From Bacteroidota bacterium (GTDB taxonomy: Bacteria > Bacteroidota > Bacteroidia > Bacteroidales > CG2-30-32-10): a stretch of DNA of 42,507 nt. Below the pieces are notes generated by a model. It saw only the letters and a program-made list of their open reading frames with translations. It searched no databases and had not been told where the DNA came from. The position numbers were made by a program, and so were the translations under genes. Shown here piece after piece: positions 775-22,729 of this stretch; within the stretch, counting starts at the first letter, position 1, and the number at the start of each line of letters is the position of its first letter. Location of the stretch: NCBI GenBank assembly GCA_043801235.1, contig JAZDMF010000122.1:1-42507 (forward strand). The letters are read 5' to 3'.

Positions 775-884
775 AAACGTTAGACATTTGTCGTTAACTT
801 CAGTTGCAAAAATAAAACTTAAATTTATCTGTAAAAAAGTCAAACGTCTAACATCTAACAAAAAAACATTAAAAACCTTATAAA

Positions 885-2115: not shown

Positions 2116-2206
2116 AAACACTAAGAACACTTAGCTCACTTAGAAACACTAAGAAAAAGATTCTTAGTGCATCTTAGTGTTCTCAGTGAATTCAGTGGTA
2201 AAAAAA
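2116..2206 (+). repeat. Word-array hairpin, 5' flank of GxxExxY cassette 1
   Basis: The left arm has four 7-mers CACTAAG/CACTTAG/CACTTAG/CACTAAG starting at 2119, 2128, 2137, 2147 (spacing 9-9-10). The right arm has CTTAGTG/CTTAGTG/CTCAGTG/TTCAGTG starting at 2163, 2173, 2182, 2191 (spacing 10-9-9). That gives four short helices in exact mirror register. The element ends in CAGTGGTAAAAAAA and is about 90% identical to 2643-2739. Confidence 0.9.
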
Positions 2207-2212
2207 TAATAT

Positions 2213-2626
2213 ATGATAATAACCCAGAAATATGTAAATAATATCGCTTACAGAGTTGTTGGATGTGCAATTGAAGTTAATAAACAATTAGGTCCGGGGC
2301 TTCTCGAATCAGTATACGAAAGTTGTTTTATTGAAGAATTGAAAATGGATGGGCTTGATGTTAAATCTCAAGTATATGTTCCCGTTATTTACAAAGGCAA
2401 AGATTTAGGAGGTTTCTTAAAAATAGATATTCTAGTAAACGATATTTTGATAGTAGAGATAAAAGCCGTGGATACGATGATTCCAATATATAAAGCACAA
2501 CTTTTGTCATACTTAAAATTAGCTGTAAAACCGAAAGGATTATTAATAAATTTTAATTCAACAAATATCATTGAGGATATGACTCCTCTTGTAACCGAAG
2601 AATTTGCAAAGTTGCCTAAAGAATGA
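2213..2626 (+). CDS. GxxExxY family protein (PD-(D/E)xK nuclease-like fold)
   Basis: This 137-aa ORF has the family-defining LGPGLLESVY motif and a D...ExK-like core (KIDILVNDILIVEIKAV). By manual count it is 97/136 identical to the ORF at 20536-20946. Confidence 0.85.
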   Translation: MIITQKYVNNIAYRVVGCAIEVNKQLGPGLLESVYESCFIEELKMDGLDVKSQVYVPVIYKGKDLGGFLKIDILVNDILIVEIKAVDTMIPIYKAQLLSYLKLAVKPKGLLINFNSTNIIEDMTPLVTEEFAKLPKE

Positions 2627-2642
2627 AGTTATTTCAAAATAT

Positions 2643-2739
2643 AAACACTAAGGACACTTAGCTCACTTAGAAACACTATGAAAAAATTCAATACGCTAAG
2701 TGCATCTTAGTGCTCTCAGTGAACTCAGTGCTAAAAAAA
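2643..2739 (+). repeat. Word-array hairpin, 3' flank of GxxExxY cassette 1
   Basis: This is a direct copy of 2116-2206. Left-arm words start at 2646, 2655, 2664, 2674 (9-9-10) and right-arm words at 2696, 2706, 2715, 2724 (10-9-9). The loop is 6 nt longer. The element ends in CAGTGCTAAAAAAA, 7 nt before the sufE ATG. Confidence 0.9.
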
Positions 2740-2746
2740 TGTGAAG

Positions 2747-3178
2747 ATGAATATTTCAGAAACTGAAAACGAAATCATCAGTGAATTTGAACAGTTCGAG
2801 GACTGGCTGGATAAATACAATTACATCATTGAACTTGGAAAATCATTGCCCCTGATAGATGAAAAATACAAGACACAGCAATATATAATAACAGGCTGCC
2901 AGTCGCAGGTTTGGTTGCAGGCTTCTTTAGAAAATAATAAAATTATTTTTAAAGCAGATAGTGATGCCATAATCACGAAAGGTATTGTCAACCTTTTAAT
3001 ACGTGTGTTTTCAGGACATACACCAGAAGAAATATTGAATGCTGATCTTGGTTTCGTGGATAAAATAGGTTTGCGCGAACACCTTTCTCCCACGCGTTCA
3101 AACGGATTAACTTCAATGATAAAACAAATGAAGCTTTATGCGCTTGCCTTTAAAACCAAACTTTCACAAAAACAATAA
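2747..3178 (+). CDS. sufE: Cysteine desulfuration (sulfur acceptor) protein SufE
   Basis: The active-site context GCQSQVWL is present and the size is SufE-like. The gene follows sufS. I prefer the ATG at 2747 over the GTG at 2741 used by the ORF track, but either is possible. Confidence 0.85.
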   Translation: MNISETENEIISEFEQFEDWLDKYNYIIELGKSLPLIDEKYKTQQYIITGCQSQVWLQASLENNKIIFKADSDAIITKGIVNLLIRVFSGHTPEEILNADLGFVDKIGLREHLSPTRSNGLTSMIKQMKLYALAFKTKLSQKQ

Positions 3179-3183
3179 ACGCC

Positions 3184-3504
3184 ATGAATGAAAAAAACTT
3201 TTTGGAACTTGAAAGCAAGATCGTGGATGCATTGAAAAATATTTTCGATCCAGAGATTCCTGTCAGCATCTATGATATGGGAATGATTTACGAAGTTTCA
3301 GTAGATGAAAAATCTATTGCTCATATCACTATGACAGTAACAGCACCCAATTGCCCGGTGGTTGAGACCTTGCCCATTGAGGTTCACAATAAAATAAAAG
3401 AAATAGAAGGCATTAAAGATGTAGATGTGAAGCTTACCTTTGAACCGCCATGGAATGAAGACATGCTGAGCGAAGCGGCAAAACTCGAACTTGGACTACT
3501 TTAA
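3184..3504 (+). CDS. sufT: SUF-associated DUF59 protein (SufT-like Fe-S assembly factor)
   Basis: This is a 106-aa ORF with the DUF59 signature region TMTVTAPNCPV. It is the last gene of the suf cluster. Confidence 0.75.
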   Translation: MNEKNFLELESKIVDALKNIFDPEIPVSIYDMGMIYEVSVDEKSIAHITMTVTAPNCPVVETLPIEVHNKIKEIEGIKDVDVKLTFEPPWNEDMLSEAAKLELGLL

Positions 3505-8880: not shown

Positions 8881-9053
8881 TATACTGTAAACGGTTAAAA
8901 ATTTAACTTTTTGTTGAATAAAAATGCTGAATTGTTTTATTGTTAAATTGTTAAAAATTAACCAACAACAGTATGTATAAAGAATGAAAACAACAATTAA
9001 ACAATTTTAACCTGTCTGCCGACAAGGCAGGCAATATAGCCATTTAAAGTATA
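8881..9053. repeat. MITE-like intergenic element, copy 1 (second copy at 28236-28459)
   Basis: The 5' module TGTAAACGGTTAAAAATTTAACTTTTTGTTGAATAAAAATGCTGAATT (8886-8933) and the 3' module AGCCATTTAAAGTATA (9038-9053) both recur at 28236-28283 and 28444-28459. The ends are inverted repeats of each other (TATACTGTAAACGG / CCATTTAAAGTATA). Confidence 0.7.
9013..9033. repeat. GCCTGCC-type mini-palindrome (intergenic copy nested in the MITE-like element)
   Basis: TGTCTGCC (9013-9020) pairs with GGCAGGCA (9026-9033) with one transition. It lies inside a 29-nt segment (9013-9041) that is absent from the otherwise matching 3' module of the copy at 28436-28459. Confidence 0.75.
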
Positions 9054-19983: not shown

Positions 19984-20421
19984 TTACCGGTTAGGAAGTT
20001 TTACAATTGTGAGCCAGAAATCTTCAATGGATTTAACCACTTCCATGAATTTATTCAGGTCGAGCGGTTTTGTGATATAGCAGTTCGCATGCAGGTTATA
20101 AGTTTTCAGAATATCTTCTTCTGCTTTTGAAATTGTCAAAATAACCACCGGTATCCTTTTCAGGTCATCGTCTTCTTTTATTTCCGCAAGAACTTCACGT
20201 CCGTCTTTTTTTGGCAGGTTAAGATCAAGAATGATCAGGTCGGGACGGGGAGCATCTTTATAATCATTTTTCCTGAAAAGAAAATCGGTTGCCTGTACGC
20301 CGTCATACACAATATGAATTTTGTTTTTGACTTTACTATCTTTCAATGATTCCTGTGCCAGCCGGGCATCGCCGGGGTTGTCTTCTATCAGAAGAATGTC
20401 AATAATTTTTAAGTTTTCCAT
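19984..20421 (-). CDS. Stand-alone receiver-domain response regulator (Rcp1/CheY-like)
   Basis: This is a 145-aa REC-only protein with ILLIEDNPGD, the phospho-acceptor context LIILDLNLPKKDG and CYITKP. Confidence 0.9.
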   Translation of the reverse strand: MENLKIIDILLIEDNPGDARLAQESLKDSKVKNKIHIVYDGVQATDFLFRKNDYKDAPRPDLIILDLNLPKKDGREVLAEIKEDDDLKRIPVVILTISKAEEDILKTYNLHANCYITKPLDLNKFMEVVKSIEDFWLTIVKLPNR

Positions 20422-20447: not shown

Positions 20448-20535
20448 TCTTTACCACGGAGGCACGGATTACACGGAGGTTCACGGAGAAAAACGCTCTG
20501 TGTTTCTCTGTGTAATCTGTGTCTCAGTGGTTTTT
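20448..20535. repeat. Word-array hairpin flanking GxxExxY cassette 2 (3' side of the gene)
   Basis: The left arm has CACGGAG/CACGGAT/CACGGAG/CACGGAG starting at 20455, 20463, 20472, 20482 (spacing 8-9-10). The right arm has CTCTGTG/CTCTGTG/ATCTGTG/CTCAGTG starting at 20496, 20506, 20515, 20523 (spacing 10-9-8). On the plus strand three of the four helices need one G:T wobble. The element begins TTTACCAC and ends CAGTGG followed by a T run. Confidence 0.9.
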
Positions 20536-20946
20536 TTATTCTTTAGGCAATTTTGCAAACATTTCAGTAACAAGTGAAACTAAATGTTCTTTAATATTTT
20601 CACAATTAAAATTTATTAATAATCCTTTAGGTTTTCCTGTAAGTTTCAAATACGATAAAAGTTGCGCTTTGTATAACGGAATCATTATTTCTACTGCTTT
20701 CTCTTCAACAATAATTAAATCGTTTACAACTAAATCAAGTTTTAAAATTCCGCCCAAATCTTTTCCTTTATAGTGTACAGGAACATATATTTGTGACTTT
20801 ACAGATAATCCAGCGCTTCTCATTTCATCAATAAAACAGATATCATAAACCGATTCGAGCAAGCCTGGACCAAGGTGTTTGTGCACTTCAATAGCACAAC
20901 CAATTATCTTATATGAAATTTCATTTATGTGTTTTTGTGTAATCAT
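20536..20946 (-). CDS. GxxExxY family protein (PD-(D/E)xK nuclease-like fold), second copy
   Basis: This 136-aa ORF has LGPGLLESVY and LDLVVNDLIIVEEKAV. It is about 71% identical to 2213-2626. Confidence 0.85.
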   Translation of the reverse strand: MITQKHINEISYKIIGCAIEVHKHLGPGLLESVYDICFIDEMRSAGLSVKSQIYVPVHYKGKDLGGILKLDLVVNDLIIVEEKAVEIMIPLYKAQLLSYLKLTGKPKGLLINFNCENIKEHLVSLVTEMFAKLPKE

Positions 20947-20958
20947 ATCGTTTTTATT

Positions 20959-21046
20959 TATTTACCACTGAGGTACAGAGAGCACGGAGGTACACGGAGA
21001 AATTCTCTGTGGTTCTCTATGCTCTCCGTGTCTCCGTGGTTTTTTA
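20959..21046. repeat. Word-array hairpin flanking GxxExxY cassette 2 (5' side of the gene)
   Basis: The left arm has CACTGAG/TACAGAG/CACGGAG/CACGGAG starting at 20966, 20974, 20983, 20993 (8-9-10). The right arm has CTCTGTG/CTCTATG/CTCCGTG/CTCCGTG starting at 21005, 21015, 21024, 21032 (10-9-8). It has the same ends as 20448-20535 (TTTACCAC... ...CGTGGTTTTTT) and abuts the kinase stop codon at 21047. Confidence 0.9.
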
Positions 21047-22729
21047 TCATTTTTTTAATGTAAAATAAAAAGTTGTTCCTTCATTTTCTTTCGATTCAAA
21101 CCATATTCTTCCGCCATGCCTTTCAATGATACGTTTGCATATTGAAAGACCTATGCCCGTTCCGGTATATTCTTCTTTGGAATGCAGGCGCTGAAAAATA
21201 GTAAATACCTTGTCATGATATTGCATATCTATTCCGATACCATTATCCCTGACGGCAAACTCATAAAAATCATTTTTCGTTTTACAGGAAATATGAATCT
21301 TAGGCAATTCGGGTTTCTTTTTATATTTGATTGCATTTTCAATAAGGTTCTGAAAAACACGCCCAATCTGTGATTCATCAACATTCAAAACTGGCAACTC
21401 TTCGTTTGTGACCAAAGCTGTGTTCGATGTTATCATTTGGTGAAGGTTCGAAACAGCCTGCCCAAGAATCAGGGAAATATCAACCCTTGTGAATTCCTTT
21501 CCCTGCGAAGATATCCTTGAATAGTCAAGCAGGTCGTTAATCAGTTTTTGCATCCGGCTTGCTCCTTCAACTGCATATTGAATAAAATCGTTTGCATCCT
21601 GGTCCAATTTGTCTTTGTATCTTCTTTCAAGCAATTGTGTATAGCTCGATACCATTCTTAACGGCTCCTGCAAATCGTGCGAAGCTACATAGGCAAATTG
21701 TTCCAGTTCCTGGTTTGAGCGCTGCAAATCAGCCAGAGCATTCATGAGTTGTTCTTCAGCTTCCCTTTCTTTTGTTACATCAAGGTTTGTTGACTGATAC
21801 CCGATAAGCTCACCATCTGCATTTCGAAGACTTGATGCAAATCCACGGGAGATAAAGGTTCTTCCATCAAATGTCTTAGCTTTAAATTCGCCTTCCCATG
21901 CATCATATTTTGCCAGCGCTTCAAGCACAGGAGTTGCATCAGCTGGATTGGCGAAGAATGAACCAACGCTTTTACCGATAGCTTCATCTATGTTAGAATA
22001 GCCCCACATTTTCAGGAACGATGGGTTCACGTGTGTAATTATTCCTGCGCTGTCGGCGATACTCTGGGAAGCAATTGAATCATCAAACACTTTATTTTTA
22101 ATTCGCAGGTCGGCTTCGGCTTGCTTGCGCTCGTTTAATAATTTATTAAGTTCTTCATTAGTAATGATTAACCTTTCCCTTTCCCTTTCCCTTTCCCTTT
22201 CCCTTTCCTTCTTAGCAATGATCAACTCTGTTGCGCGTTTTGCCTTTTCTTTGTTGGCAATGATTAGTTCGGCAGCACGTTTCTCTTTTTCTTTGTTGGC
22301 AATGATCAATTCAGCAGCACGTTTTTCTTTTTCTTTGTTTTGAAAGGCAAGTTCTTTGTTGGCTATTATTAACTCTGCAGCACGTTTCTCTTTTTCTTTG
22401 TTCTGAAATACAAGTTCTTTGTTAGCAATGATTAGTTCGGCAGCACGTTTTTCTTTCTCTTTATTTTGAAAAGCGAGTTCTTTGTTGGCAATGATTAGTT
22501 CGGCAGCACGTTTTGCTTTCTGTTTATTTTTAAAGGCAAGTTCTTTGTTGGCAATGATTAACTCTGCTGCCCATTTTTCTTTCTCTTCGTTTTGAAAGGC
22601 AATGTCTTTATTGGCGCGTTCGAGGAGTTCCTGTGTAATCTTTAATTTTTCTTCACTTTCTTTCAGCCTGTTTACTTCCTGCTCCAGTTTCTGCAAGTCG
22701 TTTATAAGTTCTTCTCTGGTTTTGCTCAT
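21047..22729 (-). CDS. Sensor histidine kinase: coiled-coil tandem repeats, PAS, HisKA, HATPase_c
   Basis: The H-box FAYVASHDLQEPLRMV and the boxes NAIKY, DNGIGI and GTGIGLS are present, with one PAS-like segment. The N-terminal 190 aa are dominated by repeats of AAELIIANKELAFQNKEKEKR. Confidence 0.9.
   Translation of the reverse strand: MSKTREELINDLQKLEQEVNRLKESEEKLKITQELLERANKDIAFQNEEKEKWAAELIIANKELAFKNKQKAKRAAELIIANKELAFQNKEKEKRAAELIIANKELVFQNKEKEKRAAELIIANKELAFQNKEKEKRAAELIIANKEKEKRAAELIIANKEKAKRATELIIAKKERERERERERERLIITNEELNKLLNERKQAEADLRIKNKVFDDSIASQSIADSAGIITHVNPSFLKMWGYSNIDEAIGKSVGSFFANPADATPVLEALAKYDAWEGEFKAKTFDGRTFISRGFASSLRNADGELIGYQSTNLDVTKEREAEEQLMNALADLQRSNQELEQFAYVASHDLQEPLRMVSSYTQLLERRYKDKLDQDANDFIQYAVEGASRMQKLINDLLDYSRISSQGKEFTRVDISLILGQAVSNLHQMITSNTALVTNEELPVLNVDESQIGRVFQNLIENAIKYKKKPELPKIHISCKTKNDFYEFAVRDNGIGIDMQYHDKVFTIFQRLHSKEEYTGTGIGLSICKRIIERHGGRIWFESKENEGTTFYFTLKK
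22160..22624 (-). repeat. In-frame tandem repeats (63-nt and 42-nt units) encoding the ELIIANKELAFQN(K/E)EKEKRAA motif
   Basis: About five 21-aa units and three shortened 14-aa units (AAELIIANKEKEKR) are read directly in the translation, aa 36-190. The DNA units are highly similar, for example the recurring GCAATGATTAGTTCGGCAGCACGTTT. Confidence 0.9.
22172..22207 (-). repeat. Hexanucleotide microsatellite (CCTTTC)6 encoding (ER)6
   Basis: Six perfect CCTTTC units are seen on the plus strand. On the coding strand they read GAAAGG x6, giving ERERERERERER. Confidence 0.95.

Follow-up and report, generated by a model that had tools for sequence, protein, structure and literature searches.

The stretch of DNA investigated here (the window) comprises 42,507 nucleotides (nt) of contig JAZDMF010000122.1 from a Bacteroidota bacterium, and the copy counts that we give for this genome refer to this window. 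Close to its start, a gene encoding a GxxExxY protein occupies the spacer between the operon genes sufS and sufE and is flanked on each side by a hairpin whose arms are arrays of a seven-letter word. The locus belongs to a large family: GxxExxY genes are associated with arrays of the word CRCNNAG, and these arrays also exist without a gene as dispersed hairpins.

The sufS-sufE spacer and its two hairpins

The upstream host gene sufS (885-2105), which encodes a cysteine desulfurase (PF00266 Aminotran_5, E 3.7e-150), ends with a TAG stop codon at 2103-2105. Overlapping this end is the first copy of a repeated unit (2100-2207) that consists of a 19-nt leader, hairpin 1 (2119-2197; left arm 2119-2153, loop 2154-2162, right arm 2163-2197), and an A-run tail. 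The GxxExxY gene follows at 2213-2626; its 414 nt encode 137 amino acids that match the profiles PF13366 PDDEXK_3 (E 9.8e-36; 123.1 bits at a cut-off of 22) and TIGR04256 (E 1.5e-37; 128.6 bits at a cut-off of 35). The second copy of the unit (2627-2740) comprises a leader starting with AGTTAT, hairpin 2 (2646-2730; left arm 2646-2680, loop 2681-2695, right arm 2696-2730), and again an A-run tail, and is followed by sufE (2747-3178; PF02657, E 6.7e-48). The start codon of sufE is most likely the ATG at 2747, judging from the relatives L121 and L124, which have the same start; the longest open reading frame (ORF) would begin at a GTG at 2741. A first-pass annotation of this DNA, made from the letters alone, had already placed the cassette at 2116-2739 and named sufS, the 414-nt GxxExxY ORF, and sufE. 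The ORF and profile matches uphold both, and sufS, the hairpins, the ORF, and sufE all lie on the plus strand, as the annotation had stated in placing the cassette on the operon strand.

The left arm of hairpin 1 contains four CACTWAG words at 2119, 2128, 2137, and 2147 (spacing 9-9-10), and its right arm four CTNAGTG words at 2163, 2173, 2182, and 2191 (spacing 10-9-9). Hairpin 2 repeats the identical word design at 2646-2680 and 2696-2730, and the description of four 7-mers per arm with mirrored 9-9-10 and 10-9-9 spacing is thus borne out for both hairpins. The words are concentrated at this type of site: the window contains 13 copies of CACTWAG where 5.4 are expected, 11 of them inside the two hairpins, and arrays of at least three CRCNNAG words occur six times against an expectation of 0.1, all six flanking one or the other of two GxxExxY genes. 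(An A+T-rich stretch at 8931-8952, with three copies of ATTGTT at an 8-nt period, is unrelated to the CRCNNAG arrays.)

The pairing between the arms is less regular than the first-pass annotation had proposed. Instead of four 7-bp helices in perfect register, only one of the eight word pairs is fully complementary on the sense strand (1/4 in hairpin 1 and 0/4 in hairpin 2). The other seven all have a mismatch at word position 5, to which two of them add a second position that does not form a Watson-Crick pair. Hairpin 1 has a minimum free energy (MFE) of -27 kcal/mol on the sense strand (z -5.3) and of -37 kcal/mol on the antisense strand (z -6.5); for hairpin 2 the values are -20.7 kcal/mol (z -1.6, not significant) and -32.8 kcal/mol (z -3.3), so that both hairpins fold better on the antisense strand. 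Long-range pairing of the left arm of hairpin 1 with the right arm of hairpin 2 is mismatched in all four words, and the MFE structure of the whole cassette uses part of that pairing.

Identity between the arms of the two hairpins is 88% in direct repeat D1 and 91% in direct repeat D2. The estimate of about 90% given in the first-pass annotation fits the arms; the whole repeated unit is only about 80% identical in a global alignment, because the loops differ by a 7-nt indel. The repeat (2100-2207 versus 2627-2740) extends beyond the hairpin and begins within the last two codons of sufS (AGTTAG versus AGTTAT), and 14 positions of the 19-nt leader are the same in both copies (P ~1e-4).

Neither hairpin resembles an intrinsic terminator, that is, a G+C-rich stem followed by a U tract on the transcribed strand. 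On the sense strand an A run comes behind each, and a terminator scan calls neither of them, in agreement on both points with the first-pass annotation. Its expectation of a U run on the antisense strand is correct for hairpin 1 (U5) and fails for hairpin 2, where only UUUAUAUUUU is found. A scan for sigma-70 promoters was uninformative (7 matches against 6.1 expected), and the Bacteroidetes -7 motif TAnnTTTG does not occur within 1801-2800. At the gathering threshold, Rfam finds no rRNA or other match in the whole window; an E-value scan of 2050-2800 returned nothing but sub-threshold matches, all to models of eukaryotic miRNAs and snoRNAs, such as a hairpin will attract by chance. A tRNA search of the window found none. 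The remainder of the operon is represented by a sufD fragment (82-774) and a FeS_assembly_P gene (3184-3504), both assigned on the basis of Pfam.

The GxxExxY protein and its association with CRCNNAG arrays

The first protein carries the motif G29-L-L-E32-S-V-Y35. Among 25 aligned sequences, G29, E32, Y35, D72, and K84 show no variation and E82 almost none; D72, E82, and K84 form a triad of the catalytic type. The AlphaFold2 model (pLDDT 90) has an alpha-beta nuclease core, and its best fold matches in the PDB, all of them weak (TM ~0.5), are Cas4 SSO0001, lambda exonuclease, and LHK-Exo. Judging from these residues and this model, the protein has a minimal Cas4/RecB-like PD-(D/E)XK fold and looks like an active nuclease. 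Profiles in Pfam and NCBIfam other than PDDEXK_3 and GxxExxY gave no match to it, and none of the profiles matched was that of an HUH/Y1 transposase. A PDB sequence search with the protein found no match either. PADLOC reports only marginal similarity to Cas4 (E 0.006), and we therefore see no link to a defence system. Viral contigs scanned with the protein and with alignment A1 contained no relatives, and PHROGs gave no match; given its absence from these viral collections, the element does not appear to be phage-borne. Exact-protein look-ups found neither the window protein nor its relative P0081 on record.

The family is very large, with 15,450 clusters at 50% identity (E <= 1e-3), and where function is concerned it has been entered as unknown since 2012 (PMC3424549). 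In the searchable literature, including that retrieved with TIGR04256, IPR026350, and PF13366, we found no description of an association between GxxExxY genes and heptamer repeats, and a text search for the heptamers gave only eukaryotic papers with no bearing on the subject. Some members of the family (P0126, P0130, P0131, and others) are about 260-295 amino acids long and have two tandem GxxExxY domains; these may be fusions of adjacent copies.

A tblastn search of the window with the first protein revealed a second GxxExxY gene (20536-20946, minus strand). Its 136-amino-acid product matches PF13366 (E 1.4e-36, 125.8 bits) and is 71% identical to the first protein in the tblastn alignment and about 70% identical in the codon alignment. 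This gene, too, lies between two hairpins on the strand of its neighbours. Hairpin A (20965-21039, minus strand; MFE -40.2 kcal/mol), located upstream and directly behind the stop codon of a histidine kinase gene (21047-22729, minus strand), is built of the words CACGGAG, CATAGAG, and CACAGAG with the partners CTCCGTG, CTCTGTA, and CTCAGTG. Hairpin B (20454-20530, minus strand; MFE -34.6 kcal/mol), located downstream and followed by a response regulator gene (19984-20421, minus strand), has the words CACTGAG, CACAGAT, and CACAGAG with CTCCGTG partners. The second element is thus again of the form hairpin-ORF-hairpin with other words, which reveals that the design is repeated in this genome while the word is variable. 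The histidine kinase contains about eight tandem copies of a unit of about 19 amino acids (KEKRAAELIIANKELAFQN) in its N-terminal half.

The claim of the first-pass annotation that hairpins and gene belong together is confirmed by the window, where every array flanks a GxxExxY gene, and by the recurrence of the pairing across phyla. When loci were ascertained through the protein alone, arrays frame the gene in six of six cases (the two window elements, L121, L124, L209, and L215), and five further loci found through the protein are framed as well (L224, L225, L227, L228, and L229). The context is ftsA-X-ftsZ in L224, with X the GxxExxY gene, aconitase-X in L225, and a pair of PAS sensor kinase genes (PAS kinase-X-PAS kinase) in L227. 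Arrays are also present in five of six distant family members from cultured organisms (34-46% identity), and GxxExxY genes framed by inverted CRCNNAG arrays are found in five phyla, at protein identities as low as 35%. The words are CACAGAG and CTCTGTG in Bacteroides finegoldii (radA-X), CACAGAG in Bernardetia (ade-X), CGCGAAG and CTTCGCG in Sphingomonas parapaucimobilis (fabD-X-fabG), and CGCAGAG and CTCTGCG, three of each, in Gemmatirosa; Treponema has a single inverted repeat, CACGGATTCG. No arrays were seen at the GxxExxY locus of Prevotella nigrescens. The consensus word across the family is C-R-C-N-N-A-G. At several loci (L224, L220, L218, L225, and L227) the GxxExxY gene is wedged co-directionally into a core operon.

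Scanning genomes for the pattern CACTWAGnnCACTWAGnnCACTWAG, that is, three CACTWAG words at a 9-nt period, recovered at least 120 loci in many phyla. This count overstates the family, because the pattern also catches plain 9-mer tandem repeats and coding repeats (e.g., L008, L109, and Paenibacillus). Such pure CACTAAGnn or CACTTAGnn 9-mer arrays, some of them coding, occur in unrelated genomes (Gammaproteobacteria, Paenibacillus, and Hydrogenedentota; L008, L109, L030, L074, and others) with neither an inverted partner nor a GxxExxY gene. Among the matches listed, only 9 of 120 have a GxxExxY gene within 300 nt, and most of the others are compact gene-less hairpins built as TTNACCACTAAG nn CACTAAG ... 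loop ... CTTAGTG nn CTTAGTGGTNAA. Where the arms are separated by 400-770 nt, there is nearly always a GxxExxY ORF between them (L010, L024, L035, L037, L043, L054, L081, L094, L097, and L111), and in L054 and L111 the arms are nested, in the order left, left, ORF, right, right. Altogether, mirrored CRCNNAG arrays are present on both sides of the ORF, as terminal inverted repeats, in about 20 loci. Most loci have one arm per side; two full hairpins are found in this genome, in L227 and L049, and partly in L215 and L229. ORF-less hairpins can be multi-copy, occurring on several contigs of single genomes such as Lewinella CAZLEF01 and Neolewinella lacunae, and they are located between co-directional genes in 22 cases, between convergent genes in 9, and between divergent genes in 2.

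The suf site in related genomes

The closest relatives of the first protein, P0002 (86% identity by protein search and 85% by codon alignment) and P0004 (77%), are both encoded between sufS and sufE. The insertions at the suf site of L121 and L124 consist of a left arm, the ORF, and a right arm, which together form one long-range inverted repeat around the gene; the fold predicted for L124 is a long-range stem, and that predicted for the window a pair of local hairpins. The suf operon of L124 holds two PDDEXK_3 genes, the second of them upstream of sufD, and the relative L124/L140 has a perfect ORF-less hairpin of four CACTTAG and four CTTAGTG words between sufD and sufS (L124 1621-1694). The corresponding spacer of the window (775-884) contains only degenerate inverted words (GTTAGAC ... 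GTCTAAC), possibly a decayed copy. The left arms in L121 and L124 are broken by small G+C-rich palindromes, CCTGCCtgccggtaGGCAGG (L121 1-60) and GCCATGGC (L124 2950-2990), which resemble tiny secondary insertions.

To compare the site more widely, metagenomes were scanned with SufE, which yielded 80 loci. Many relatives whose SufE is 60-72% identical (L130, L133, L134, L147, L163, and L176) have empty sufS-sufE spacers of about 7-20 nt; the short spacer that the first-pass annotation had suggested looking for in relatives does exist. Other loci reveal that the parts of the element are separable. L150 has a degenerate word-array hairpin and no ORF in this spacer, a combination that the annotation had itself named as evidence against a self-contained hairpin-ORF-hairpin cassette. 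Together with the arm-ORF-arm layout at the suf site of L121 and L124, and with ORF-less hairpins being the commoner form, this rules against the self-contained unit that it had envisaged.

The same spacer also accommodates unrelated word arrays without a gene, such as seven copies of AATGAC (L135), ten of GAATGA (L141), TAGAG (L179), and GAATGTT (loci with such arrays include L131 and L148), and it gives the impression of a general hotspot for word arrays. In L153 (2009-2480) it contains a gene for a 124-amino-acid protein of the PF05635 family ("23S rRNA intervening sequence protein"), framed by TTCAATG and CATTGAA arrays, and in Flavobacteria-like loci a gene for a META-domain lipoprotein.

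When the window is compared with L121 or L124, synonymous sites of the GxxExxY gene prove saturated (proportion of synonymous differences, pS, ~0.73), while its nonsynonymous divergence (dN) is 0.09-0.16 and the ratio to synonymous divergence (dN/dS) 0.03-0.05; for SufE the same comparisons give a dN of 0.17-0.18. Given this low dN/dS with saturated synonymous sites, the gene must be old at the suf site and as constrained as its housekeeping neighbours. As judged by comparison of these sequences, the element entered the sufS-sufE spacer, short until then, in an ancestor of the lineage, and the gene has since been under strong purifying selection. The notion that a cassette colonised an operon spacer is thus correct as far as the insertion is concerned, for which the empty spacers in relatives speak, and wrong if a recent arrival is meant.

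How gene and arrays may work together

Several properties of the arrays bear on mechanism. Within one genome, the words and a terminal TTNACCAC motif are conserved, whereas the spacers of 1-3 nt and the loops differ; conserved words with drifting spacers point to recognition of the words rather than to pairing. Across 36 hairpins we found no register-specific complementarity (0.56 mismatches in register versus 0.57 out of register; permutation p 0.55), and from these alignments selection would seem to act on the word and not on the word pair. The family consensus is a T run, a hairpin, and an A run, on either strand. Read from the outer end inward, the spacing of four words is 8-9-10 in 23 cases, 9-9-10 in 14, 9-9-11 in 9, and 9-9-9 in 8, and the reverse orders occur 0-1 times. 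The spacing thus widens toward the loop or the gene in a graded, polar, and family-wide manner, of which the 9-9-10 and 10-9-9 arrays of the window are one instance.

The word also follows the protein. The two clades are named for their catalytic motifs, E-E-K and E-[ILV]-K. Members of the EEK clade (the second window copy, P0059, P0026, P0118, and P0102) have CAC[AG]GAG words in five of five cases, and members of the E[ILV]K clade have CACT[ATG]AG words in every case. Since word type tracks protein clade at unrelated sites and within this genome, gene and arms appear to have been inherited together at new sites. Furthermore, although the arms are palindromic, the GxxExxY gene shares its direction with the genes on either side in 21 of 25 loci; this argues for a dependence on host transcription. 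With the window gene on the operon strand as well, the geometry fits the read-through transcription that the first-pass annotation had proposed.

The reading that we favour, and to which we assign a probability of about one half, is that these loci represent a widespread foldback element, in which a GxxExxY nuclease gene is framed by inverted CRCNNAG arrays and the putative nuclease acts on these arrays. The element is apparently undescribed, and the function of the nuclease on the arrays is one that we infer. The gene would lack a promoter of its own and be expressed through read-through from the host operon; as the sense strand has no U tract behind the arrays, transcription is not expected to stop there. 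The nuclease would recognise the heptamers, either in duplex DNA or in a folded or cruciform hairpin, and would cut at the arrays. Repair or strand transfer would then spread and maintain the arrays and would occasionally place the gene in or next to a resident hairpin. At the RNA level, the arms could fold into local hairpins or pair over a long range, giving a stem such as that of a 23S rRNA intervening sequence (IVS), and the arrays may also be processed as RNA. Such an element would be the PD-(D/E)XK counterpart of the relationship between REPINs and RAYTs, in which doublets of REP (repetitive extragenic palindromic) sequences go with REP-associated tyrosine transposases (Bertels and Rainey; PMC3116915, PMC3337134).

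The two full hairpins of the window would go back to an event in which the hairpin-bearing spacer, about 108 nt long, was duplicated as a whole when the gene was inserted or reinserted. Because the duplicated unit contains 6 nt of sufS, the copying seems to have taken in the entire hairpin-bearing host spacer, and staggered cuts flanking a resident hairpin, or cruciform resolution and fill-in, would yield this product. Nested insertion, snap-back synthesis, and tandem duplication were considered as origins of the two-hairpin layout; none of them fits the arm order and the duplicated end of sufS.

The resemblance to REPIN-RAYT systems extends to several features. In both, short dispersed hairpin-forming inverted repeats occupy intergenic spacers, repeats that also occur without a gene lie on either side of a small gene of about 400-500 bp (as in both window elements), each gene clade has its own repeat type (here possibly through one ancestral split), and the gene is under long-term purifying selection. 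The protein that defines those systems, however, is an HUH/Y1 (IS200-like) transposase, and a PD-(D/E)XK (Cas4/RecB-like) protein takes its place here. In addition, the repeats here are arrays of 3-6 graded heptamers rather than a single REP palindrome of 20-35 nt, and the gene is often located inside the hairpin loop. Copy number may be a further difference: RAYTs are single-copy, and two gene copies, each with a different word type, are present here within 42 kb.

The terminal inverted repeats of 23S rRNA IVSs form a stem that is cut by RNase III, and the Coxiella stem has tandem GACAGAT heptamers ahead of the ORF (PMC4990558). The ORF-bearing IVSs of Coxiella burnetii and Leptospira share with the element an inverted-repeat stem around a small ORF of about 120-140 codons (as seen in L121 and L124), heptamers in the stem (the GACAGAT of Coxiella), and, probably, a location within a host transcript on whose transcription they depend; moreover, it is a gene for an IVS protein that is present in the suf spacer of L153. 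In contrast to the IVSs, which are located in helix 25 or 45 of 23S rRNA, the element is found in the spacer of an mRNA operon; its protein has a nuclease fold and not that of a four-helix bundle; its gene is strongly conserved, whereas the Coxiella ORF is decaying; and each arm in the window is now a complete local hairpin.

Two further kinds of element invite comparison. Eukaryotic foldback (FB) transposons and miniature inverted-repeat transposable elements (MITEs) have terminal inverted repeats composed of tandem short subrepeats, and most copies consist of repeats only, with a minority carrying a coding region in the loop. Inverted repeats built of subrepeats and a predominance of gene-less fold-back copies are common to these and to the family described here, which is nevertheless prokaryotic, about ten times smaller, and without target-site duplications as far as seen, and which encodes an unrelated protein. 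Free-standing homing endonuclease genes include one for a PD-(D/E)XK enzyme, I-Ssp6803I. Like them, the element has a small co-directional nuclease gene between host genes at a site that is empty in relatives, and spread by cleavage and repair is plausible. In contrast to homing endonuclease genes, its putative target is a multi-copy repeat and not a unique allele, its insertion is ancient and fixed and not polymorphic, and the PDB sequence search detected no similarity of its protein to known homing enzymes.

A number of observations weigh against the interpretation as a foldback element. No target-site duplication was found: the arms are not flanked by direct repeats, their outermost bases (TTNACCAC ... 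GTGGTNAA) belong to the palindrome, and apart from the 108-nt unit of the window no duplication was seen. We also found no recent presence/absence polymorphism, and copies within the same genome differ in spacers and loops, and hence are not the young identical copies expected of an active MITE. The gene for a four-helix-bundle protein (PF05635) in the array-framed spacer of L153 implies that the enclosed gene need not be a mobility enzyme. Finally, the link between clade and word may result from a single ancestral switch, and most of the ORF-bearing examples were ascertained through the CACTWAG pattern, which biases the word statistics.

An alternative explanation is that the arrays matter in the transcript alone, as in an IVS-like element, with stems that are processed by RNase III or a similar enzyme, or that insulate or stabilise cistrons as REP and 23S IVS stems do, and with the nuclease as a passenger. 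The arm-ORF-arm layout with its likeness to the 23S IVS, the tandem heptamers of the Coxiella stem, the IVS-protein gene at the same site in L153, the strong co-directionality with host operons, and the hairpins predicted here and the long-range stem predicted in L124 are all in line with this possibility. If pairing in RNA were what matters, however, one would not expect complementarity to be independent of register, word pairs in the window to be mismatched at the same position in seven of eight cases, the sense-strand fold of hairpin 2 to lack significance, or words to be conserved amid drifting spacers, which points to recognition of the word; the correspondence between word type and protein clade would be left unexplained. 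We therefore regard a role in RNA alone as rather unlikely. Still less probable, in our view, is that the hairpins are REP-like repeats maintained by the host for protein binding or mRNA stabilisation, which GxxExxY genes use as landing pads when a circle of the ORF and one hairpin recombines with a resident hairpin. ORF-less hairpins do far outnumber ORF-bearing ones, they are located in operon spacers and between convergent genes as REPs are, other gene-less word arrays occupy the same suf spacer in other lineages, and the paired hairpins of each window element are direct repeats, as circle integration would produce. The commonest layout, arm-ORF-arm, cannot be obtained by integration of a circle at a hairpin, however, and such a circle would not copy the end of sufS, 6 nt of which are contained in the duplicated unit without being part of any dispersed repeat. 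The association is also retained in phyla with diverged words (CGCGAAG and CGCAGAG), which suggests that gene and words have long travelled together.

The direct orientation of the imperfect palindromes, a hairpin-ORF-hairpin order reminiscent of attC-ORF-attC, and a gene without an obvious promoter of its own could also suggest an integron-like gene cassette, whose hairpins would be attC-like folded sites for a tyrosine recombinase. In relatives, however, the ORF lies inside one inverted repeat and not between two sites, the cassettes are scattered singly in housekeeping operons rather than arrayed beside an integrase, and the arms are arrays of one heptamer and have no R and L boxes. No integrase is found in the gene tables of related loci (the other ORFs of the window were not scanned for one), and an integron origin is very improbable. 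We give hardly any credence to the notion that the hairpins are common intrinsic terminators or attenuators located next to the gene by coincidence: they are stable hairpins behind genes, and U5 does follow hairpin 1 on the antisense strand, but the sense-strand A runs, a family consensus without a U tract after the stem in either direction, AT-rich stems with periodic internal loops, the negative result of the terminator scan, and the position of hairpins inside operons (sufS-sufE, ftsA-ftsZ, and fabD-fabG) all speak against it.

Returning to the foldback element, we tentatively consider a broader possibility, namely that GxxExxY proteins are the dedicated nucleases of unrecognised prokaryotic foldback elements that extend across phyla and have graded CRCNNAG arrays as cis sites. 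These would be a PD-(D/E)XK analogue of REPIN-RAYT systems that resides inside essential operons (suf, ftsA-ftsZ, and fabD-fabG) without polar effects, and they may be the source of ORF-bearing 23S rRNA intervening sequences. The pairing with CRCNNAG arrays provides a concrete and testable substrate for a very large, uncharacterised protein family, and it suggests that a second class of enzymes, beside the HUH-type RAYTs, sustains dispersed hairpin repeats in bacteria. It also connects these repeats with the ORF-bearing intervening sequences of 23S rRNA, which have long lacked an explanation, and it implies that such elements can persist for a long time inside essential operons. For genome annotation, the pairing accounts for many of the small genes labelled "GxxExxY protein", and for the hairpins that surround them, in Bacteroidota, Ignavibacteriota, and other phyla.

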